Of a stretch of DNA of 64,000 nucleotides, positions 2,675-47,121 are shown piece after piece. Each line of letters starts with the position of its first letter. Position 1 is the first letter of the stretch. Under the pieces are notes generated by a model. It searched no databases and was not told where the DNA came from. It saw only the letters and a list, made by a program, of their open reading frames with translations. Location of the stretch: assembly GCA_035463475.1 (NCBI GenBank), contig DATHTE010000133.1:97297-161296 (forward strand), given 5' to 3'. The position numbers and the translations under genes are program-made. Source of the stretch: Vicinamibacterales bacterium (lineage in GTDB: Bacteria > Acidobacteriota > Vicinamibacteria > Vicinamibacterales > 2-12-FULL-66-21).

Positions 2675-3465
2675 GCGCGCATCACCGCGTACCTGAGGAA
2701 CACGTAATAGACGGGCGCGGCGAAGAGCCAGCTGTCGATGCGGTCCAGCAGACCGCCGTGCCCGGGAATCAGCCCGGAACTGTCTTTCACGCCGGCGCTG
2801 CGCTTCAGCAGCGACTCGAACAGATCGCCGACGATGCCGAGCGCCACGAGCGCGGCGCCGAGCAGCGCGAGCGAGAGCGGCGCGATGCCCGGCAGCCAGT
2901 AAAGTCCGAGCGCCACCGACGCCGCGGTGCCCGCGACCAGCCCGCCGATCGCCCCTTCCACCGTCTTCTTCGGGCTGATCGACGGCGACAGCAGCCGCCG
3001 GCCGAGCGCGCGACCGGCATAGTACTGCCCCGTGTCGCTGATGACGATGATCGCGATGAGCACGAGGACCGCCTCGCGGCTCACCGACGCCCGCACGGCG
3101 ACGAGCGCGCCGATCGGCACGCCCAGGTAGATCAGCGGGAACAGGCTCGCCGCCGCTTCCCGCAGCCGCGCCGCGTCGGGCTGACCCGAGCCGACCGTCA
3201 GCCCTCCGACGACGATCAGCGCCGAAATGAAGACGACGTCGAGCGGCGAGCCGGGCGTGGCCATCGCGATGGCCGTGGCCGCGGTCGCCACGAGCGAAAC
3301 GAGGAGGTACACCGGAGCGCCGAGGCGCGCCGCGAGGTCGGCGTACTCGAAGAAGGCGACCACGAGCGCCGCGAGCGCGAGGAGCAGCGTCGCTATCGGA
3401 GGTAGGAACCAGATGGTGCCGAGGACGATCGGCAGCAGGACGAGCGCGCTCAGAACGCGGACCAT
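2671..3465 (-). CDS. cdsA: phosphatidate cytidylyltransferase
   Basis: 264-aa polytopic membrane ORF; C-terminal signature SLLKRSAGVKDSSGLIPGHGGLLDRIDS; position between uppS and dxr. Confidence 0.9.
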   Translation of the reverse strand: MVRVLSALVLLPIVLGTIWFLPPIATLLLALAALVVAFFEYADLAARLGAPVYLLVSLVATAATAIAMATPGSPLDVVFISALIVVGGLTVGSGQPDAARLREAAASLFPLIYLGVPIGALVAVRASVSREAVLVLIAIIVISDTGQYYAGRALGRRLLSPSISPKKTVEGAIGGLVAGTAASVALGLYWLPGIAPLSLALLGAALVALGIVGDLFESLLKRSAGVKDSSGLIPGHGGLLDRIDSWLFAAPVYYVFLRYAVMRA

Positions 3466-35125: not shown

Positions 35126-36591
35126 GCGGGGTCCGCGCGCGGCTCGCCCCGCTCGCCGCCGCCGTCCTGCTGGCGTCCGGAACGATCGGCGCGCAGCGCG
35201 CGCCCGATCGCGCGACCCTGCGCCGCGACATCGACGCCGTGATGGCGGCGCCCCTCCTGTCCCGCTCTCACTGGAGCATCCGCGTCAAGTCGCTGGATCG
35301 CGGCGACGTCATCTACGAGCAGAATCCCCGCAAGCTGGTGATGCCCGCGTCGAACATGAAGGTGTTCACGATGGCGGGTGCGGCCGAGCGTCTGGGATGG
35401 GACCACCGCTTCGAGACCACGCTCGAGACCGGCGCGCCGATCGCCGACGGCATGCTGCAGGGGGATCTCGTCGTGAGAGGCAGCGGCGATCCGACAATTG
35501 CGCTTCGAGATGATGTCGCCGTGCGGGCGTTCGATGACTGGGCGCGGCAGCTCCGCGACGCGGGCGTCTCGACGATCGCGGGCCGCATCGTGGGCAATGA
35601 CGATGCGATGGAGGATGAAGAGCTGGGGAACGGCTGGGCGTGGGACGACCTCGGCTACGGGTACGCCGCGCCGGTCACCGCGCTGGTGTTCAACGAGTCG
35701 CTCGTCCGCGTGAACGCGCGGCCCGGCACGCGCGCCGGCGACCCCGCGCTCATCGAACTCGTCCCGGCCGCGGGCCACGGGCTGACGATCGTGAACCGTG
35801 TCACGACGGGCGAGGCGACCGAGCCGGAGAGCTTCGCCGCACGCCGTGCGCGCGGATCCCCGGAGCTGGAGCTGGTGGGCCGCGTGCCGATGGCCAGCGA
35901 ACCTGTCGCGACGCTGACCGCATCGGTCGAGAACCCCACGCTGTATTTCGCGCGGTCGTTGCGCTCGGCGTTGATAGCGCGCGGCATCCGGGTCGAGGGG
36001 GACGCCGCCGACCAGGATCTGCTCCCGCCGTGGGACGCGATCCGGTCCGCCAGGCCGCTTCGCGTCCTGGCGCGCCATCGCTCAGCCCCGCTCACGGACA
36101 TCGGTCGGACGTTCATGAAAGTGAGCCAAAACCTCTACGGCGAGCTGCTCGTCAAGTCGATCGGCTCGGGCACGACCGCCGAAGGGCAACGTGCCGTCCG
36201 GGAGACGCTCGACCGGTGGGGGGTGCCGCGCGACGGCTATATCCTCGCGGACGGTTCGGGTCTGTCGCGGCTGAACTTCGTGTCCGCCGACGCGCTGGTG
36301 ACGATTCTCGAGCACCTCTACGCAGACCCGCGTCACCGCGAGCCCTTCCTGCAGGTGCTGCCGGTCGGCGGAACAGACGGGACGCTGCGCAACCGGCTCC
36401 GCGCGTCGTGGACGGCGGGGAACGTCCACGCGAAAACCGGCTCCATCACGAACGTCCGGGCACTGTCCGGGTACCTGAAGACCCGAAGTGGCGAGATGCT
36501 GGTGTTCTCGATCGTCGCGAACAACTTCAGCCTGCCGGCGTGGCGGATCGAGCGGGTGATTGATCTGATCGTGGAAATCGCTGCGCGATAG
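35122..36591 (+). CDS. dacB: D-alanyl-D-alanine carboxypeptidase/endopeptidase (PBP4, S13 family)
   Basis: 489 aa; signal peptide, PASNMK (SxxK), and HAKTGS (KTG) motifs. Confidence 0.85.
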   Translation: MSGVRARLAPLAAAVLLASGTIGAQRAPDRATLRRDIDAVMAAPLLSRSHWSIRVKSLDRGDVIYEQNPRKLVMPASNMKVFTMAGAAERLGWDHRFETTLETGAPIADGMLQGDLVVRGSGDPTIALRDDVAVRAFDDWARQLRDAGVSTIAGRIVGNDDAMEDEELGNGWAWDDLGYGYAAPVTALVFNESLVRVNARPGTRAGDPALIELVPAAGHGLTIVNRVTTGEATEPESFAARRARGSPELELVGRVPMASEPVATLTASVENPTLYFARSLRSALIARGIRVEGDAADQDLLPPWDAIRSARPLRVLARHRSAPLTDIGRTFMKVSQNLYGELLVKSIGSGTTAEGQRAVRETLDRWGVPRDGYILADGSGLSRLNFVSADALVTILEHLYADPRHREPFLQVLPVGGTDGTLRNRLRASWTAGNVHAKTGSITNVRALSGYLKTRSGEMLVFSIVANNFSLPAWRIERVIDLIVEIAAR

Positions 36592-38986
36592 GAGCCGTGG
36601 CCGACAGGGCGCGCATCGGCGCGAGCAGCAGCGCGTAAAGCGCGGCTGCGACGGCCAGGTTGGCGTCGATGCTGACCCACATCGAGACGCCAACCGCCGC
36701 GATGGCGGCGAGCACGCCGCACGCGCCGTTCACCCCCCACATCCACGCGGTCGCCTCGTCCGAGTGCCGGCCCACCAGGCGCATCCCGATAGGAAAACAG
36801 AAGCCGAGCAGCGTGGACAACGGTGCCGTGAACGCCAGCACGACGGCCGAGCGCCAGGGCAGGGCGAGCGGCGCGGCCGCGCGGAACGCGGCGGGCAGGG
36901 CGGCCAGGTCTATCGCGATGAGCGCGGCGATCGCGAGCGGCAGGACCATGTAGCGGCGGCCGGGGATCGCCAGCCGGTCAGACCACATGCTGCCCAGGCC
37001 GGCGAACAGGATCATCGAGAACAGGATGATGGCGAAGGTGTACGTCGGGTGCCCCAGCAGGACGGAGAACCGCTGCAGGAAGGCGACCTGCACGAGCATG
37101 AAGCCGCACCCGATCGCCGCGAAATAGAACAGCGCCGAGCCGAACGTGGCGCGCGGCATCGGCAGGCGTCCGCGGCGCAGCAGCGGCCACGCGATGACGA
37201 ACAGCACCCCGACGAGCGCCACGGCAAACAGCAGCACCAGTGTGCCGGTCGCACGGATGTTGCCCCAGATCACGCCTCCCCGCGGCGTGTCGAACGCGCG
37301 CGCGAACCGCGTCGGCTTGAGCATGTTGAAGAAGAACGGGCGGCGATCGAGGGGGGGCGTGTAATCGAAGTCGGGGTCGGCCGCGGCCGCGGTCAGCTCG
37401 CTGTGCGAGCGGCTGTTCGCCAGCCGTTCGAGCCGCGGGGATGCCGCCGCGTGCCAGGGGGAGACCAGCATCCTGAAGCCCTCCTCCGCCGCGAGGCGCT
37501 CGATCGCATGCCGATCCTGGTCGTCGAACGGCTGCGGGGCGACGATGAGGGTCGCGACCGAGCGGCGCGCCGCCATCACGAGGTGCGCACGCGGCGACTC
37601 GACGCCGCGGTCGATGAGGGACGCGACGCCGAGGGCGAGCAGCCGGTTGGTCTCCGAGACGTTCGACGGATTGAACCAGCGGGACACGCTGAAGACGCCC
37701 CGCGGCGTCAGCCGCGAGAGGAACAGCTGCCACGCCTCCCGCGTGTACAGGCCGTTTTCGGTGAGGCTGAACGCGCCCGCGCCGGTCGCCGCCCACGTGT
37801 CGATCAGCGACATCTGCAGCACGTCGAAGCGTTCGGTGGCGCGGGCCAGAAACGCGCGAGCCTCGTCGTGCACGAGGCGGACGCCAGGCGTGTCGGCGAG
37901 CCGCGCGAAGGTTCGATGGGAGCCCGCCAGCGTGTCCACCAGGATGCCGTTGATCTCGATCCCGGTGATCTCCGTGTTGCCGCCCCAGAGCGCCGCCAGC
38001 AGGTCGCGGCCACCCCCGACGCCGATCACCGCGGCGCGGCCGTGCCGCAGGTGATGCGGCAGCGACGTGACGTCGTGGCTCACCCAGTCGAGCTCCTCGA
38101 CCCGGCCGTCCCAGCGAGTGATCGGCGTGCCCGCTTCACCATCGATGAGCACCCACGCCAGCGTCGCCTCCCGGGCCGGCGCCCGCTTCCCTGCCCCCCA
38201 CAGGAACACGGTCCCCTTCCGCGGAGCCTGGACGATGACAAATGAGTGGCTGTTCCAGGCGGTGCTGTCCACGCCGTCGCCTTCGGTGACCAGCGGCCGG
38301 TTCTTCGCCATGATCGGCATCAGCCCGCGGTCGGCGCGCGCGTTGGCGATCGCGAGCGTGGCGCAGAGCGCGGCAAGCGTCCACGCGCCCCACGCGCGCC
38401 TGATGCCGGCGAAGCGGTGCAGGGCGACGGACCCGAGCGCCGCCGCGGTCGCGGCCGCCAGGGCCGTCGAGCTGAGGTTCGTGCCATCGAGCAGCGGCAC
38501 GACGGCGAGGCAGCCGGCGGAGGCGCCCAGCAGGTCCCACGCGTAGGTCCGCCCGATCGGCGCGCCGGTCCGCGTCAGCGCGAGGGTGACGACCACACCC
38601 GAGAGGTAGAACGGCACCGCGAGAACGAGCGTCGCGACAGCAAGCGTGGTGACCTCCATCGCAAGCTGCGCGCTGCCGATCGGGATGGGCACGCACAGGT
38701 TCACCACGTGCGAGATCGCGATCGACGCGGCGAAGAGCAGCGAGCTGCGCGCGAGTGCGCCGCGTGCTCGCGCGCCGATCATCGCGTCTCCCGCCAGGAA
38801 CACGCGAACAGCGCCCGCCGACATGCCCAGCATCGCGAGCGACACCGCGAAGAACGACAGGTGATACCAGGTCAGGACGGAGAGCAGCCTCGAGTCCAGC
38901 ACCTCGAGGACCAGCGTGGCAAAGGTGACGAGGAACAGGCCAGCGGCGAGCGAGCGCGTGCCGGCCTGCGCCGGGGTGGAAATCAT
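36527..38986 (-). CDS. polytopic membrane protein with embedded spermidine-synthase-like methyltransferase-fold domain
   Basis: 819 aa; TM bundles flank VIGVGGGRDLL...GIEINGILV...LQMSLIDTWAA (aminopropyl/methyltransferase-fold); function unknown. Confidence 0.6.
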   Translation of the reverse strand: MISTPAQAGTRSLAAGLFLVTFATLVLEVLDSRLLSVLTWYHLSFFAVSLAMLGMSAGAVRVFLAGDAMIGARARGALARSSLLFAASIAISHVVNLCVPIPIGSAQLAMEVTTLAVATLVLAVPFYLSGVVVTLALTRTGAPIGRTYAWDLLGASAGCLAVVPLLDGTNLSSTALAAATAAALGSVALHRFAGIRRAWGAWTLAALCATLAIANARADRGLMPIMAKNRPLVTEGDGVDSTAWNSHSFVIVQAPRKGTVFLWGAGKRAPAREATLAWVLIDGEAGTPITRWDGRVEELDWVSHDVTSLPHHLRHGRAAVIGVGGGRDLLAALWGGNTEITGIEINGILVDTLAGSHRTFARLADTPGVRLVHDEARAFLARATERFDVLQMSLIDTWAATGAGAFSLTENGLYTREAWQLFLSRLTPRGVFSVSRWFNPSNVSETNRLLALGVASLIDRGVESPRAHLVMAARRSVATLIVAPQPFDDQDRHAIERLAAEEGFRMLVSPWHAAASPRLERLANSRSHSELTAAAADPDFDYTPPLDRRPFFFNMLKPTRFARAFDTPRGGVIWGNIRATGTLVLLFAVALVGVLFVIAWPLLRRGRLPMPRATFGSALFYFAAIGCGFMLVQVAFLQRFSVLLGHPTYTFAIILFSMILFAGLGSMWSDRLAIPGRRYMVLPLAIAALIAIDLAALPAAFRAAAPLALPWRSAVVLAFTAPLSTLLGFCFPIGMRLVGRHSDEATAWMWGVNGACGVLAAIAAVGVSMWVSIDANLAVAAALYALLLAPMRALSATAPIAQRFPRSDQSPARSATPAG

Positions 38987-38990
38987 GCCG

Positions 38991-40196
38991 TCACGACGGC
39001 TGCGTGGATCCCGCCGCGGCGGCGATCAGCTGGCGGGCGGCCTCGAGCACCGCGCCGGGAGCGCCGTCGAGCCCGCCTGCCTGCGCCAGTTCGGGGCGTC
39101 CGCCACCGCGGCCGCCGAACTGCGCGGTCAGCGCCTTGACCGCGGCCCCGGCGTCGAACGCGACGTCGGCGCCGCGCGCGATCGCCACCAAGCCGCCGGC
39201 GGGATTGAAGAACGCCGCGACAACGTCGGGCGTCGCGGCCGCCGCGCTCGCCAGCGCTTTCAGACCGCCGGCGTCCCACTCCACGGTCTCGACGACGACG
39301 CGCCAGCGGCCGAGGCGCGCCGCGCGATCGACGCAGCCGCCGGCTTCGAACCCGGCGAGCTTCTCCTGCAGCCCGCGGATGGCGCGCTGCTGGTCGCGCG
39401 CCTCGGACTGCAGCCGCGCGATGGCGTCCGGCAGCTCGGACGGCAGCACCGAGAGCTGCCGGATGCTGCCCGCGAGCGCGTCGCGCATCGCGCCGAACGC
39501 GCGAAGGGCGCGGCCGCCGCAGACGAACTCGATACGGACGCCGCCCTTGTACTTCTCCGAGCCGCTCACCGCGATGAGGCCGATCGATCCGCTCCGCGCC
39601 ACGTGCGTGCCTCCGCACGCGGACATGTCGTAGCCCTCCACCTCCACGATGCGCAGCTTGCCCGTGCGCTTCGGTTCCTTGCGGAGCGGCAACGCGGCGG
39701 CCTCCTCGTCGCTGGCGAACCTCACCGTCACGGGACGGTTCTCCCAGACGATCCGGTTGGCCTCGCGCTCGACCCGCGCGAGCTCCGCGGCCGCCAGGTC
39801 GCGCGACAGGTCGATGGTGCTGCGCTCCGTGCCCAGGTGAAAGCTGACGGTGCGCGCCGCGAGCACCTTCTCGAACGCGGCCGAGAGCACGTGCTGGCCG
39901 GTGTGCTGCTGCATGTGATCGAAGCGGCGGTCCCAGTCGATCCGTCCCGTCACGGCACCGCCAGGGGAGACTTCCCGGTCGAGCACGTGGACGACCGCGC
40001 CGTCCTCGCGATCGATGACGTCGATCACCGCCGCGTCGCCGAGCGTTCCGGCATCGGAGGGCTGACCGCCGCTGGTCGGATAGAACGCGGTGCGATCGAG
40101 AACGGCCGCGGGACGCCCGTCGTGCGGAGAAGCGTCCACGACGGTGGCCTCGAACTCCCGCGCGTAGGCGTCCGTGTAGTAGATGCGGTGCGTCAT
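38991..40196 (-). CDS. alaX: alanyl-tRNA editing protein (AlaX-L type)
   Basis: 401 aa; HTGQHVLS and CGGTHV zinc motifs of the AlaRS editing domain plus C-terminal DHHA1-like region. Confidence 0.85.
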   Translation of the reverse strand: MTHRIYYTDAYAREFEATVVDASPHDGRPAAVLDRTAFYPTSGGQPSDAGTLGDAAVIDVIDREDGAVVHVLDREVSPGGAVTGRIDWDRRFDHMQQHTGQHVLSAAFEKVLAARTVSFHLGTERSTIDLSRDLAAAELARVEREANRIVWENRPVTVRFASDEEAAALPLRKEPKRTGKLRIVEVEGYDMSACGGTHVARSGSIGLIAVSGSEKYKGGVRIEFVCGGRALRAFGAMRDALAGSIRQLSVLPSELPDAIARLQSEARDQQRAIRGLQEKLAGFEAGGCVDRAARLGRWRVVVETVEWDAGGLKALASAAAATPDVVAAFFNPAGGLVAIARGADVAFDAGAAVKALTAQFGGRGGGRPELAQAGGLDGAPGAVLEAARQLIAAAAGSTQPS

Positions 40197-40928
40197 TCAG
40201 GCCTCGCGGCCGCGCGCGTCCGCCCCGGCGGGCGCGCTCGCGCGCAACAGCGGATCGCGCGCGCCCGCCTCGTGGAACCCGCGCGCGCGCAGACGGCAGC
40301 TGTCGCAGCGACCGCACGGCAGCCCCTCCGGGGATGGGTCGTAGCAGCTGTGGGTCAGGCCGTAATCGAGCCCGAGCGCCAGGCCGGCGCGGATGATGTC
40401 CGCCTTGCTCATGTGCAGGAGCGGCGCCTCGATCGTGATGGCGTGACCCTCCACCCCCGCCCGGGTCGCGAGCGTCGCCATCCGCTCGAACGCCCGCAGA
40501 TATTCGGGACGACAGTCCGGATACCCGGAGTAGTCGATCGCGTTCGCGCCGATGACAATGGCGCTCGCGCCGACCACTTCGGCCCACGCGAGCGCGAGCG
40601 AGAGCAGCACCGTGTTCCGCGCCGGCACGTAGGTGGAGGGGATCTCCGGAGCGTCCAGCGTCCGGTCCTTCGGAACCGCGCCGCCGCCCGTCAACGTCGA
40701 TCCGCCGACGGCGTCGAGGTTTACCGTGAGCTCGAGCCGGCGCGCGACGCCGAGGGCGCGCGCGACGCGCTCCGCCGCGCGCAGCTCCTGGGCGTGGTGC
40801 TGGCCGTACCGCACCGTGAGCGCGTACAGCTCCGCCCCGCGCGACTTGACGATCGCCGCCGCGGTGTACGAGTCGAGTCCGCCGCTGAGGAGCACAACGG
40901 CGCGTGACGCCGGCGACATCGGTTTCAT
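40197..40928 (-). CDS. queC: 7-cyano-7-deazaguanine synthase
   Basis: Start at ATG 40928 ([22 protein letters not shown]-loop); C-terminal CGRCDSC zinc cluster. Confidence 0.9.
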
Positions 40929-40957
40929 TGTAGTATGTCGCGGCCGGGAGAACCGAC

Positions 40958-41290
40958 GTGCCGAAGGCGACGTTTTACTGGAAACCGACCTGAACGACAT
41001 GCCGCAACGCCAGGAGTCTTCTGGCGCAGCAGCGCGTGGAGGTCGAAGATCGGGACATCAGCAAGGAACCGCCGACGCGCGAGTTCCTCGAACGGCACGT
41101 CGACGCCGACCGCTTCCTCGATTTTGTGAGCACCCGAAGCCCGGTCTTCAAGCAGCAGCCGCTGCCGAAATCCAAAAAGGAAGCCATCGACCTCATGATG
41201 GAGCACCCGAACCTGATCAAGCGCCCGATCCTCGTCAGGGGTTCGAAAGTGATCTTCGGGTTCGACAAGGAGAAGTACAAGGGGCTGTGA
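40958..41290 (+). CDS. ArsC/Spx-family thiol(selenol) oxidoreductase-like protein, candidate selenoprotein with in-frame UGA at 40991-40993
   Basis: Track ORF 41036-41290 lacks the family N-terminus; the same frame upstream reads GTG(40958)[27 protein letters not shown] and joins it, giving the FYxxPxCxxCRKAxxxL pattern with TGA at the first Cys position; C-terminal [12 protein letters not shown] family motif. Confidence 0.6.
41001..41033 (+). promoter_or_regulatory. SECIS-like stem-loop downstream of the in-frame UGA
   Basis: Upper stem CGCCAG (41008-41013) / CUGGCG (41021-41026), 7-nt loop GAGUCUU; lower pairs G41001-C41033, C41002-G41032, G41004-C41030, C41005-G41029; loop begins about 20 nt after the UGA. 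Confidence 0.5.
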
Positions 41291-41315: not shown

Positions 41316-42254
41316 ATGGGCGAGATTCGGATCGGGACGTCGGGCTGGAGCTACGCGTCGGGGCAGGGCACGTGGAACGGCGTGTTCTATCCCGCCGGGC
41401 CGGCGCGCCCGCGCGGCTTCAAGGAGCTGGCGTTCTACGCGCAGCATTTCGACACGGTCGAGATCAACTCCACCTTCTACCGGCCTCCCGCCGCCTCGAG
41501 CGCGAAGAAGTGGGTCGGGCTGACGCCCCCCGGCTTCGAGTTCTCCGTGAAGCTCTATCAGAAGTTCACGCACCCGGAGATGTTCGTGAAGGCCACCGGG
41601 CAGGACCCCCACGACCTCGGACGGGCCGACGTGGACGAGTTCCGGTCCGGTATTGAGCCGCTCGCGGAGAGCGGCAAGCTGGGCGTGCTGCTCGCGCAGT
41701 TCCCGGCGAGCTTCCGAAGCGACGACAACGCCCGCGGGTACGTCGCGTGGCTGCTCGAGACGTTTCGCGAGTACCCGATGGCCGTGGAGCTGCGTCATCG
41801 CAGCTGGAGCGACAATTCCGGGGAGACGCTCGCGATCCTGGCGGCCACCGGCGCCGCCTGGGTCCAGATCGACGAGCCGAAGTTCCGGTTCTCGATCCGC
41901 CAGACCTTCCGGCCGAACACCCCGGGCCTGTTCTACATGCGGCTGCACGGCCGGAACGCGGCCAACTGGTGGACCCACAAAGCGTCGGAGGACCGCTACA
42001 ACTACCTGTACACGTCTGACGAGCTGAAGCCGGTCGCTGAGGCGGTGGAAGGTGCCGCGCGCGTCACGCGCAAGGCGTACGTCTACATGAACAACCATTA
42101 CTCCGCGAAGTCGGTCGTCAACGCGGCGGTGCTGAAGCACCAGCTGGGACTGGACGTGCCGGGCGAGTACCCACCGGAGTTCCTCGAGCGATACCCCGAG
42201 GTCGCGGGGATCGTGAAGCCTACCTCGCGCCCCCCTTCAGGTACATTCTTTTGA
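41316..42254 (+). CDS. DUF72-domain protein
   Basis: 312 aa; IRIGTSGWSY...FYAQHFDTVEINSTFYRPP family signature. Confidence 0.8.
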   Translation: MGEIRIGTSGWSYASGQGTWNGVFYPAGPARPRGFKELAFYAQHFDTVEINSTFYRPPAASSAKKWVGLTPPGFEFSVKLYQKFTHPEMFVKATGQDPHDLGRADVDEFRSGIEPLAESGKLGVLLAQFPASFRSDDNARGYVAWLLETFREYPMAVELRHRSWSDNSGETLAILAATGAAWVQIDEPKFRFSIRQTFRPNTPGLFYMRLHGRNAANWWTHKASEDRYNYLYTSDELKPVAEAVEGAARVTRKAYVYMNNHYSAKSVVNAAVLKHQLGLDVPGEYPPEFLERYPEVAGIVKPTSRPPSGTFF

Positions 42255-44562: not shown

Positions 44563-44826
44563 TCAGTGCCCGTGCGACTGGCAGTACCCGCAGTGGTTGC
44601 AGCGGACCGCGGGCTCGATGAAGCAGGGGCCGTCGCTCTCCTCGCCGCTGAGCACGTTGTGGCGTGCGTGGCTCGCGTGCCACGCGAGCGGCAGCAGACG
44701 CGGCGCCGAGTACTGGTGCGCCCGCTCCGCGGGGCCCACGGACTGGGCGCGGGCCGACCCGGGCGCGGCGCCCAGGTGCCGCGAGACGACCTCACGGACC
44801 AGCGCGCGAACCGCTTCTTCGTTCAT
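44563..44826 (-). CDS. small Cys/His-rich protein with N-terminal encapsulation-peptide-like helix (BMC-associated, function unknown)
   Basis: 87 aa; MNEEAVRALVREVVSRHLG amphipathic helix, Pro/Ala/Gly linker, C-terminal CFIEPAVRCNHCGYCQSHGH (C-x7-C-x2-C-x2-C plus His); start overlaps the BMC-P stop as ATGA. Confidence 0.6.
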   Translation of the reverse strand: MNEEAVRALVREVVSRHLGAAPGSARAQSVGPAERAHQYSAPRLLPLAWHASHARHNVLSGEESDGPCFIEPAVRCNHCGYCQSHGH

Positions 44827-45101
44827 GCGTCGATTCCCACGTCCACCGCGTCGACGATCCCCACGACCGCGGCGTCGACCGGCGCGGCTTTGCGGCCAAG
44901 GGCGTCCCCCGCCGCCTTCCCCTCGAGCACGACGAGCACCTTCTCGCCCACGCCCGCGCCGACGGAATCGATCGCGAGCACGGTGTTCCCGCGCGGGGCG
45001 CCCGCGAGCGTGAGGGGCTGCACGAGCAGCAGCTTCGCGCCGTGGAGCTTGCGGTGCTTCTGCGTCGAGACCACGGTGCCGACCACGCGCGCGATCTGCA
45101 T
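44823..45101 (-). CDS. BMC-P pentameric vertex protein (EutN/CcmL family), paralog 3
   Basis: Internal start MQIARVVGTVVSTQKHRKLHGAKLLLVQP (codon 89 of the 180-aa track ORF); full EutN-like length of 92 aa. Confidence 0.85.
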   Translation of the reverse strand: MQIARVVGTVVSTQKHRKLHGAKLLLVQPLTLAGAPRGNTVLAIDSVGAGVGEKVLVVLEGKAAGDALGRKAAPVDAAVVGIVDAVDVGIDA

Positions 45102-45105
45102 GCGG

Positions 45106-45381
45106 TCACGCCTGCGGCTGATAGTCCCATTCGTCGACGATGCCGATGATCGCGGCGTCGGTCGGCGGCTCGACGGGATAGAAGGGGAACGCGGCCTCGC
45201 GGCCGCGCACGAAAAACACGCGCTCGCCGACGCCGGCGCCGACCGAGTCGGTGGCGACCAGGGTCTTGCCCACGTCCTGGCCGTCGGCGGCGATGGGTTG
45301 CAGGACCAGGAGCTTGATCGAGACGAGGTTCTCGTCCTTGCGGGTCGCCACCACGTCGCCGACAACGCGCGCGAGCTGCAT
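45106..45381 (-). CDS. BMC-P pentameric vertex protein (EutN/CcmL family), paralog 2
   Basis: 91 aa; [29 protein letters not shown]...ATDSVGAGVGERV. Confidence 0.88.
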   Translation of the reverse strand: MQLARVVGDVVATRKDENLVSIKLLVLQPIAADGQDVGKTLVATDSVGAGVGERVFFVRGREAAFPFYPVEPPTDAAIIGIVDEWDYQPQA

Positions 45382-45650
45382 CAGTCCACCACCTCGATGG
45401 TGTCGATGATGCCGACGATGGCGGCGTCCACCGGGCAGTCCTTCATGCCGGAGGCCATGCGCGCGGAGCTGCCGCTCACGATGAGCACCGTCTCGCCGAC
45501 GCCGGCATCGACGGTGTCTACCGCGACGAGGTAGTTCGCGTCGAGCTTGCCTTTCGGGTCCACGGGGCGGGCCAGCAGGAGCTTGCTGCTCACGAGGCGC
45601 TCGTCCTTCCTCGTGGCGACGACGGTGCCGACGATCTTCGCCAGGATCAC
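45381..45650 (-). CDS. BMC-P pentameric vertex protein (EutN/CcmL family), paralog 1
   Basis: 89 aa; [29 protein letters not shown]...[13 protein letters not shown]. Confidence 0.88.
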
Positions 45651-45973
45651 GCCTTCGCCGTGTTCGCCTTGCCGATCGGCAGCGCGTCCTCGAGGTTGGC
45701 GTGCGGGCGCGGAATGACGTGCACCGACACGAGCTCGCCGACGCGGCGGGCGGCTGCCGCGCCCGCGTCGGTCGCGGCTTTCACGGCGGCGACGTCGCCG
45801 CGGACGATCGCGGTCACGTAGCCGGCGCCGATCTTCTCCCAGCCGACCAGCGTCACCTTGGCGGCCTTGACCATCGCATCGGCCGCTTCGATCATCGCGA
45901 CCAGGCCTTTGGTCTCGATCATCCCCAGCGCTTCACCCATCAGAGCCTCCAGATCGTGCGCACGCGCCCTCAC
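45647..45973 (-). CDS. BMC-H hexameric shell protein (PF00936-type, PduA/EutM/CcmK-like)
   Basis: [58 protein letters not shown]; ATG 45973 overlaps the aldolase stop (ATGA); ATG 45940 ([10 protein letters not shown]) is the more family-typical start. Confidence 0.9.
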
Positions 45974-46830
45974 TTCAGGGCGCGGATCGCATCCTCAATC
46001 AGTGCTGCCAGTTCGCCGTATGTTAGCCGAATTTCCTGATCCGCTCCTAGCGCCGCGGCGGCGGCCAGGCGCGGCCCGCCGGGCGGCACGTCGGCGGCGC
46101 GCACGACCTGGCAGGCGGCGTTCCCCTCGGCCGTGCCGGCGCGCGCGGGCACCTGGTCCGGCGGGCAGATTGGTGCCGGCGACGCGATGCCGTACGTGCC
46201 GCGGAGCCGTTGCAGGCGATCGACCTCCTCGCGCGAGAGCACGCGCTCGCGCCCGAGCAGGCGCGCCACGAGGCTGATTCTCGCGAAGTGCTCGATCGTC
46301 TCCATCTTGTAGTACGCCGCGTACAGCTCGTGCCCCACGGTCAGCGCGCCGTGGTTGGCCAGGAGCAGGCCGTCGTGTGCCTTGATGTATGCCTCGACGG
46401 CGTGCGCCAGCTCCGGCGTCGACGGCGTGCCGTACTCCGCGATGGGAATGCTGCCGAGCGTGGTCACGACCTCGGCGAGGACCGCGCGATCGAGCGGGAT
46501 GCCCGCGACGGCAAAGCCGGTGGCGATCGGCGGGTGCGCGTGCACCACGGCGCTCGCGTCCGGCCGGTTCCGGTAGACCGCCAGGTGCATCAGCAGCTCG
46601 GACGAGGGATCGCGATCGCCGGCGAGTTTCTTGCCCGACATGTCGGTGACGACCATCATGTCGGGTGTCATGAAGCCCTTGGAAACACTCTTGGGGGTCG
46701 CCAGCAGCCGCTGGCCGTCGAGGCGCACGCTGATGTTGCCGTCGTTCGAGGCGCAGTAGCCGCGCGCGTACAACCGGCGGCCGACCTCAACGATCGCCGA
46801 CCGGAGCGCGTCTTCCGGCGTCGGGGCCAT
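45970..46830 (-). CDS. class II aldolase/adducin-family protein with C-terminal encapsulation-peptide-like extension
   Basis: 286 aa; FucA/AraD-like core with Zn ligands (VVHAHP, LANHG); about 70-aa extension ending in the amphipathic helix [20 protein letters not shown] after a Pro/Ala/Gly linker. Confidence 0.85.
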
Positions 46831-46833
46831 GTG

Positions 46834-47121
46834 CTAGCGGGCCGTCCGCGCCTTGCGCGCGAACTCGTCGCGGCACCGCTCGGAGCAGAAGTACCGAATG
46901 AGCGCGCCGTCACGAGCGGCGAGGGCCCGCCCCGGCACGACGTACGTGCCGCACACCGGATCGCGCGAGAGCGCCACGCCCGTGTCGAGTCTGCCCCCGG
47001 GCCGGCGCTCGTCGAGCCCAAGGCCGCGGCGCACGCCCGAGACCAGACGCCACACTGCCTGCACGACCAGCACGATGAGGATGACCGTCAGGAGGAAACG
47101 GACCATGAGCGGGCTACTCAC
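46834..47121 (-). CDS. membrane-anchored YHS/TRASH-like small protein
   Basis: 95 aa; N-terminal TM helix, then DPVCGTYV...YFCSERCRDEF pattern. Confidence 0.6.
   Translation of the reverse strand: MSSPLMVRFLLTVILIVLVVQAVWRLVSGVRRGLGLDERRPGGRLDTGVALSRDPVCGTYVVPGRALAARDGALIRYFCSERCRDEFARKARTAR

Follow-up and report, generated by a model that had tools for sequence, protein, structure and literature searches.

An ArsC/Spx-family gene of Vicinamibacterales with an in-frame UGA and a SECIS-like hairpin: a probable selenoprotein called as an 84-residue fragment

The locus at positions 40958 to 41290 of the window analyzed here (the whole stretch of 64,000 nucleotides [nt] from contig DATHTE010000133.1 of a Vicinamibacterales bacterium) raises the question of whether a TGA codon within a reading frame is a stop or is read as selenocysteine (Sec). 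The locus is very probably a gene for a 110-amino-acid (aa) selenoprotein of the ArsC/Spx family, in which the UGA is recoded to Sec via a hairpin resembling a bacterial Sec insertion sequence (SECIS) and whose product is probably a selenol/thiol oxidoreductase. The features of the gene, all on the forward (+) strand, are the following.

40946..40951, +, Shine-Dalgarno-like GGGAGA, 6 nt before the GTG start (weak evidence, read from the sequence)
40958..41290, +, coding sequence of the putative ArsC/Spx-family selenoprotein, 110 codons plus stop, with a product ending in KYKGL
40958..40960, +, GTG start codon, 11 codons 5' of the UGA and the sole start after the TAG at 40931-40933
40991..40993, +, in-frame UGA, putatively read as Sec, residue 12 and first position of UxxC
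41000..41002, +, TGC, predicted resolving Cys15 of UxxC, a Cys that is invariant in alignments and pairs with Spx Cys13
41009..41025, +, SECIS-like hairpin core GCCAGG / AGUCU / UCUGGC, recognized from RNAalifold, pair counts, forced codons, and decay in Cys forms
41036..41038, +, GTG, used by open reading frame (ORF) callers as the start of an 84-aa product and here read as the internal codon Val27
41288..41290, +, UGA, true terminator of the selenoprotein gene

The nearest upstream in-frame stop was the TAG at 40931-40933, and no ATG, GTG, or TTG other than GTG 40958 was present between it and the TGA at 40991-40993. From that TAG, the frame runs through GTG 40958 and the TGA, continues for 14 residues into the called ORF, and stays open from the TGA to the terminal TGA at 41288-41290, with 110 codons in total. 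The codons after the internal TGA (ACG, ACA, and TGC) give U-T-T-C where homologues have C-T-T-C. The ORF list of the window contained only 41036..41290 (84 aa) for this gene, and the same truncated call was found on a 100-kb ENA soil contig, where an 84-aa entry (P0049) showed 99% identity. The original prediction had placed the only start at GTG 40958, the upstream stop at TAG 40931-40933, and the recoded codon at TGA 40991-40993, with a product of 110 aa, and had described the caller's start at 41036 as yielding 84 aa without the N-terminal part; all of this was borne out by the sequence. It had also pointed to a -10-like TAGTAT at 40931-40936; these letters are present, but a promoter role is unsupported, as a sigma-70 promoter scan found no promoter-like site for the selenoprotein gene. 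Of 131 related loci, only 44 had a loosely defined SD-like motif before the start, so that GGGAGA is not a conserved feature.

Homologue searching returned 3,459 proteins, and 160 related loci carrying the motif were collected from two scans, one covering species-representative genomes and the other JGI and ENA metagenomes. The genome loci all came from metagenome-assembled genomes (MAGs) of Acidobacteriota, mostly labelled Vicinamibacterales, plus one Bryobacteraceae, and the metagenome contigs came from soil. Start codons were counted over 131 distinct TGA loci, and the hairpin was analyzed in a gap-free alignment (A3) of 132 distinct TGA sequences. Across the 160 loci, the codon at the position of the first Cys was TGA (144 loci), TGC (15 loci), or TGT (1 locus) and was never TAA or TAG, which puts the Sec form at about 90% of the sampled loci. 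The proteins of these loci had a median pairwise identity of 77%. More than 100 full-length homologues (62 to 78% identity, 100% coverage) aligned from residue 1 with Cys opposite the TGA (CTTC). The Cys forms were scattered among the Sec forms, with Sec nearest neighbors at 86 to 96% identity, which is the usual pattern of Sec/Cys exchange.

The frame itself was conserved on both sides of the TGA, with synonymous variation on both flanks across the related loci. The three codons 5' of it varied only synonymously (AAG/AAA, CCC/CCG/CCA, and ACC/ACG/ACT), no further stop occurred within the 91-codon register in any of 159 loci, and a start codon lay exactly 11 codons 5' of the TGA in 127 of the 131 distinct TGA loci (ATG in 125 and GTG in 6). 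The position equivalent to 41036 was a start codon in only 27 of the 131, being usually ATC or GTC, and many loci had no in-frame start until 45 to 68 codons downstream of the TGA. Two outcomes that had been named in advance as telling against a selenoprotein, homologues that truly begin at 41036 and relatives with a pseudogenized N terminus, were thus looked for and not seen: full-length homologues align from residue 1, and the codons before the TGA vary synonymously with no other stop in the register.

These counts bear on two simpler explanations. If the UGA were a real stop, the product would be the 84 aa from GTG 41036, without the redox motif, and the 11 upstream codons would be a leader peptide or noncoding. 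This is what ORF and gene callers report, and Pfam ArsC still matches the fragment; the fragment, however, holds only the C-terminal half of the ArsC profile and would be without the N-terminal strand and helix seen in the structural model described below. The rarity of a start at 41036, the distance to the first start in many relatives, the conservation as in-frame protein of the region from the UGA to 41036 (T-T-C-R-N-A-R), and the synonymous evolution of the 11 upstream codons leave this explanation extremely improbable. Alternatively, a Cys-type gene might show TGA in place of TGC through nonsense mutation or faulty sequencing, and the locus would then be a pseudogene or artifact. A single nucleotide separates the two codons, and two loci (L078 and L080) show frameshift-like N-terminal disruptions; against this, 144 of 160 independent loci, drawn from many assemblies and sequencing projects, share the TGA and none has TAA or TAG instead, with the frame intact on both sides and a hairpin that co-occurs with TGA, and the chance of such an origin is vanishingly small. 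The comparative data rule out that the locus is a pseudogene, that the TGA is a sequencing error, or that the protein is truly short.

In the two disrupted loci, both from long-read MAGs (L078, approximately 3001-3322; L080, approximately 3001-3319), the conserved C-terminal part was in frame and the N-terminal translation was scrambled, which looks like a frameshift by assembly error or a real pseudogene, unlike the intact frame in the other 159 loci. One JGI homologue (P0017) had Trp at the Sec/Cys position (KPTWTTC), presumably encoded by TGG, one nucleotide from TGA; either an error in sequencing or a true change from TGA to TGG could account for this.

Reassignment of TGA throughout the genome was considered and rejected. 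TGA was the normal and commonest terminator, ending 15 of the 23 called genes on a near-identical contig (L001), and it also ends the selenoprotein gene, so that recoding would be site specific. The Sec form was found at larger distances as well: a locus from the Bryobacteraceae MAG (L081, 3019-3102), which belongs to another acidobacterial class and shares 45% identity, keeps the TGA and a compensated hairpin (GCGAGG/CCUUGC), and the Sec form therefore reaches beyond Vicinamibacterales.

The RNA downstream of the UGA folded more stably than expected. The segment 40985-41050 had a folding energy of -30.1 kcal/mol, compared with -20.0 ± 2.8 kcal/mol for shuffled sequences (z = -3.55), and none of 200 shuffles was as good. 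In the 132-sequence alignment, the RNAalifold consensus retained the apical hairpin only (columns 32-36 paired with 42-46). Its conserved part is a 5-bp stem (41010-41014 with 41020-41024) closed by a 5-nt loop (41015-41019) with G at 41016 and U at 41017; that is, a CCAGR/YCUGG hairpin beginning 16 nt after the UGA with the loop A-G-U-N-N. About one-third of the sequences, among them that of the window (41009 with 41025), formed a sixth pair, G-C. The loop G was invariant and the loop U was present in 120 of the 132 sequences (91%). In E. coli fdhF, loop nucleotides G23 and U24 lie at a similar distance. Bacterial SECIS elements have been described as marked by a conserved guanosine in the apical loop (PMC2398784, Fig. 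7 legend). The original prediction of a SECIS-like stem-loop over 41001-41033, with a 6-bp upper stem and a 7-nt loop, was right in substance, in that the hairpin is real and conserved; its lower stem proved specific to the window sequence, only the apical part is kept among relatives, and the conserved element is smaller (5 to 6 bp with a 5-nt loop).

Pairing in the stem was maintained through sequence change. The loop-closing pair was A-U in 107, G-C in 22, and G-U in 3 of the TGA sequences and was broken in none, and the Bryobacteraceae locus carried a C-G to G-U change at another stem pair. Paired cells made up 89% of the total, versus 16 to 61% when the 3' partner was slid by one to three columns, and none of 500 shuffles reached the observed covariation score. 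The stem lies within conserved coding sequence (N-A-R-S-F-L), and codon choice is therefore a sharper test of RNA function. The stem Arg codon was AGA or AGG in all 132 sequences, whereas the Arg three codons earlier was CGN in 115 of 120; Ala was GCC in 131 of 132, Leu was CUG in 130 of 132, and Ser was AGU, which supplies the loop G-U, in 114 of 132. The window as a whole has a G+C content of 69%, which is the setting for this codon choice.

The hairpin might nevertheless be a by-product of a conserved peptide (A-R-S-F-L), with no function as RNA. It does lie within conserved coding sequence, and four of the five pairs in its stem are nearly constant and thus uninformative either way. Yet its codons are fixed to pairing-competent synonyms despite the high G+C content and the neighboring Arg being CGN; the changes from AGA/UCUGG to AGG/CCUGG are coordinated, the A-C combination never being seen; and in Cys-form genes for similar peptides, different codons are used and the stem is lost. 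A by-product is highly improbable on these grounds. Among the Cys forms, 9 of 15 kept only three of the six pairs, and the mean minimum free energy was -3.9 kcal/mol, versus -9.2 kcal/mol in Sec forms. The stem was retained in a few Cys forms (L003, L029, and L131), some of which have Sec forms as their nearest relatives at 91 to 96% identity, which suggests that they are recent conversions from Sec.

The hairpin appears to be unique in the window: when the sequence was searched for another copy of the SECIS core motif, only the site at 41009-41025 was found. A screen of window genes for other UGA interruptions, filtered by G+C content at third codon positions, returned only ordinary TGA-ended genes; because the strict filter missed the selenoprotein gene too, this negative is a weak one.

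The restored N terminus completes a recognizable protein domain. With Cys substituted at residue 12, the 110-aa protein matched Pfam ArsC (PF03960) at 56.6 bits (cutoff, 24; E value, 3.3e-15) over residues 7-108 and profile positions 1-77 of 79, and it also matched the glutaredoxin fold; the 84-aa version covered only profile positions 41-77 of 79. By sequence, the nearest solved structures were those of Spx (3L78 and 1Z3E; phmmer E value of about 1e-11, approximately 28 to 32% identity), and Sec12 and Cys15 aligned with Spx Cys10 and Cys13. The proposal that reading upstream restores the N terminus of an ArsC/Spx-family protein thus held. An AlphaFold model of a natural Cys homologue with 76% identity (P0001) had a predicted local distance difference test score of 90.6, with a strand at residues 5-8, a helix at residues 13-24, and residue 12 just before the helix. 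In this model, residue 12 would sit at a helix N terminus, as in thioredoxin-fold CxxC proteins. Foldseek comparison of the same model recovered Spx at template modeling (TM) scores of 0.70 to 0.81 and YffB at 0.84, as well as ArsC-family proteins.

Assignment within the superfamily was less direct. TIGR01617 (arsC_related; Spx/MgsR family) was passed marginally (76.6 bits versus a cutoff of 75.05). The Spx-specific models failed (NF002459, 50.1 versus 123 bits; NF009885, 31.1 versus 152 bits; NF009210, 30.4 versus 159 bits), as did the arsenate reductase models (TIGR00014, 41.2 versus 106.05 bits; NF007456, 24.8 versus 242 bits), NF008107 for the ArsC family reductase (35.9 versus 121 bits), and NF041106 for the ArsC family (seleno)protein ArsC_rel_Se_1 (25.3 versus 85 bits). 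Arsenate reductase function was rejected, since the protein falls short of the equivalog models and has no ars genes in its neighborhood. The protein is most likely a selenol/thiol oxidoreductase of the ArsC/Spx/YffB superfamily, a function assigned from fold and motif only. In such an enzyme, Sec12, at the N terminus of helix alpha-1, would be the nucleophile that attacks a presumed substrate, and Cys15 would resolve the intermediate via a selenenylsulfide.

Spx, the redox-sensing regulator of Bacillus subtilis and other Firmicutes that binds RNA polymerase (RNAP), is the best sequence match, with CxxC in the same place (UxxC here) and Arg60 conserved. It is about 131 aa long, whereas the window protein has 110 aa and is without the C-terminal tail, and its Gly52 is replaced: the equivalent residue is Arg in the window protein and, among 159 loci, was Arg in 104, His in 30, Asp in 13, Asn in 7, and Gly in 1. 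Spx Gly52 contacts the RNAP alpha subunit's C-terminal domain (alpha-CTD), a G52R change abolishes both the Spx-alpha-CTD interaction and Spx function, and the partner residue alpha-CTD Tyr263 is reported to be absent from Gram-negative bacteria (PMC2801614). With Arg or His in place of Gly52, no C-terminal tail, and scores below the cutoffs of the Spx-specific models, the protein is not a canonical Spx. That it is nonetheless a genuine redox-sensing regulator of the Spx/MgsR type in a Gram-negative phylum, with an RNAP contact other than that of Gly52 and alpha-CTD Tyr263, is very unlikely; if it were one, it would be the first selenoprotein transcription factor, with a selenol-based redox switch and a partner of the DUF72 family in its circuit.

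In the proposed mechanism, the UGA at 40991-40993 would be recoded cotranslationally to Sec in a Sec12-Thr-Thr-Cys15 motif, and the hairpin would act as a bacterial SECIS, bringing SelB and Sec-tRNA(Sec) to a ribosome paused at the UGA; the UGA at 41288, without such a hairpin, would end translation normally. Sec use has been recorded in Acidobacteria (three families and four selenoproteins; PMC1794560), including Occallatibacter riparius (PMC12013277), and the literature search found no paper linking Vicinamibacterales with Sec.

Several observations weigh against recoding to Sec. No selA, selB, selD, or tRNA-Sec gene was found, either within the 64 kb of the window or in the sequence flanking the approximately 160 related loci: E. 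coli SelA, SelB, and SelD, used as tblastn queries, matched nothing in the window or in any of the fetched loci, ARAGORN and Rfam found only a tRNA-Met in the window, and ARAGORN found no tRNA in 60 related loci. Sec machinery elsewhere in the host genome is therefore assumed. The stem is short (5 to 6 bp), four of its five pairs vary in no more than 2 of 132 sequences, and the covariation comes mainly from one pair, with a second pair contributing through a single sequence. No Rfam family matched the hairpin, a permissive search of 40940-41100 giving chance-level matches only, and the function is read from fold and motif only.

The absence of Sec machinery from the window and flanks would also fit decoding of the UGA as Cys or another residue by a tRNA-Sec-like opal suppressor (a SelC*-type tRNA-Cys or an allo-tRNA), or hairpin-stimulated near-cognate readthrough. 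tRNA-Sec-like allo-tRNAs are frequent in Acidobacteria and may be nonsense suppressors (Mukai et al., PMC5389517), and the SelC* tRNA-Cys is a possible opal suppressor in other phyla (PMC5389517). The phyla with reported SelC* genes, however, are Firmicutes, Thermodesulfobacteria, Nitrospirae, and Proteobacteria, not Acidobacteria (PMC5389517). The UGA falls exactly on the redox Cys of CxxC and alternates with TGC and TGT, which is the signature that defines selenoproteins, and the hairpin has the position and the loop G expected for a SECIS bound by SelB. For insertion of Cys in particular, there is no obvious selective reason to maintain a UGA and a costly hairpin in about 90% of lineages. 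Decoding without Sec is accordingly held to be very unlikely, and Sec insertion is the preferred reading of the UGA.

Selenoproteins of this kind are already known, UxxC ArsC-like members having been catalogued since 2006 to 2008. Predictions from 2006 placed ArsC-like selenoproteins in Desulfotalea and Desulfuromonas (PMC1794560); the Global Ocean Sampling (GOS) study listed "Arsenate reductase 1" (pfam03960, UxxS) and "Arsenate reductase 2" (cd03032, UxxC; 42 Sec and 238 Cys sequences) (PMC2398784); and a review from 2022 has an entry for an "arsenate reductase-like protein, COG1393, UxxC" (PMC9312934). These sources agree with the earlier statement that such proteins had been predicted and not characterized. 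The window protein has the UxxC motif and Spx-like best matches and, compared by description, may belong with GOS "Arsenate reductase 2." It resembles that group (Zhang and Gladyshev, 2008) and the COG1393 entry in its thioredoxin fold, N-terminal UxxC, and many Cys homologues; these, too, were predicted via UGA/Cys pairing and a downstream stem-loop and are biochemically uncharacterized. Compared again by description only, the GOS and COG1393 sets are mainly from marine metagenomes, whereas the window clade is from soil Vicinamibacterales/Acidobacteriota.

The glutaredoxin-coupled ArsC of E. coli R773 (1I9D) and GOS "Arsenate reductase 1" (UxxS) share the Pfam family, the fold, and an N-terminal nucleophile in the same loop, but the window protein has UxxC instead of CxxS or UxxS, with approximately 20 to 22% identity and a lower target-normalized TM score. 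YffB (PA3664; 1RW1), an ArsC-family protein of uncertain function with about 114 aa, gave the highest TM scores (0.84/0.82), although sequence identity was about 27% and NF008107 was not passed. NF041106 is a curated ArsC-family model that allows Sec, and the kind is thus already recognized by annotation pipelines; unlike its members, the window protein scores far below the cutoff. No selenoprotein-aware NCBIfam model reached its cutoff for the window protein, which may explain why gene callers truncate this clade to about 84 aa.

Two genes flank the selenoprotein gene closely.

41316..42254, +, DUF72 (PF01904) gene, 25 nt downstream of the selenoprotein gene (DUF72 match, 3e-56)
40197-40928, divergent, queC, upstream, 29 nt from GTG 40958

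The DUF72 gene lay immediately downstream on the same strand in approximately 70 of 77 genome loci; DUF72 matches were present in 73 of the 77, among them one about 2 kb away (L050) and one upstream on the opposite strand (L071). Because this placement is conserved, the two genes probably form one operon. The selenoprotein probably acts together with the DUF72 protein encoded downstream.

What is new here is the clade of soil Vicinamibacterales/Acidobacteriota in which the Sec form predominates, with its compact covarying SECIS and conserved DUF72 partner; no new mechanism is revealed. A systematic annotation error is corrected: in Vicinamibacterales, which are very common in soil, the gene has been called as a fragment of 84 residues that lacks the active site. 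The 132 distinct sequences are a large and self-consistent addition to the ArsC/Spx-like UxxC selenoproteins, a class with few members so far, and the hairpin could serve to train or benchmark predictors of bacterial SECIS elements and selenoproteins. The findings also imply a dependence of these soil Acidobacteria on selenium and a conserved selenoprotein-DUF72 gene pair.

On the upstream side, most relatives (L003 to L082; e.g., L006, 2232-2987, minus strand) had an ORF of about 250 aa between queC and the selenoprotein gene, resembling queE and encoding a radical S-adenosylmethionine motif (CDLRCSWC). In the window (40929-40957) and on the near-identical contig L001, queC was only 29 nt from the selenoprotein start, so queE is missing there. 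Next to queC, also on the minus strand, 38991-40196 encodes a 401-aa protein with only C-terminal parts of alanyl-tRNA synthetase (tRNA_SAD and DHHA1), which resembles an AlaX-like stand-alone editing-domain protein. Beyond it, an 819-aa ORF on the minus strand (36527-38986) was called as a gene on a related contig and has no Pfam family on record. Downstream, at approximately 44800-46850 on the minus strand (from L001, 13800-15807), lies a bacterial microcompartment cluster that contains a single BMC-H shell gene, three EutN/CcmL pentamer genes in a row, a class II aldolase gene (46830-45972), and small domainless ORFs.

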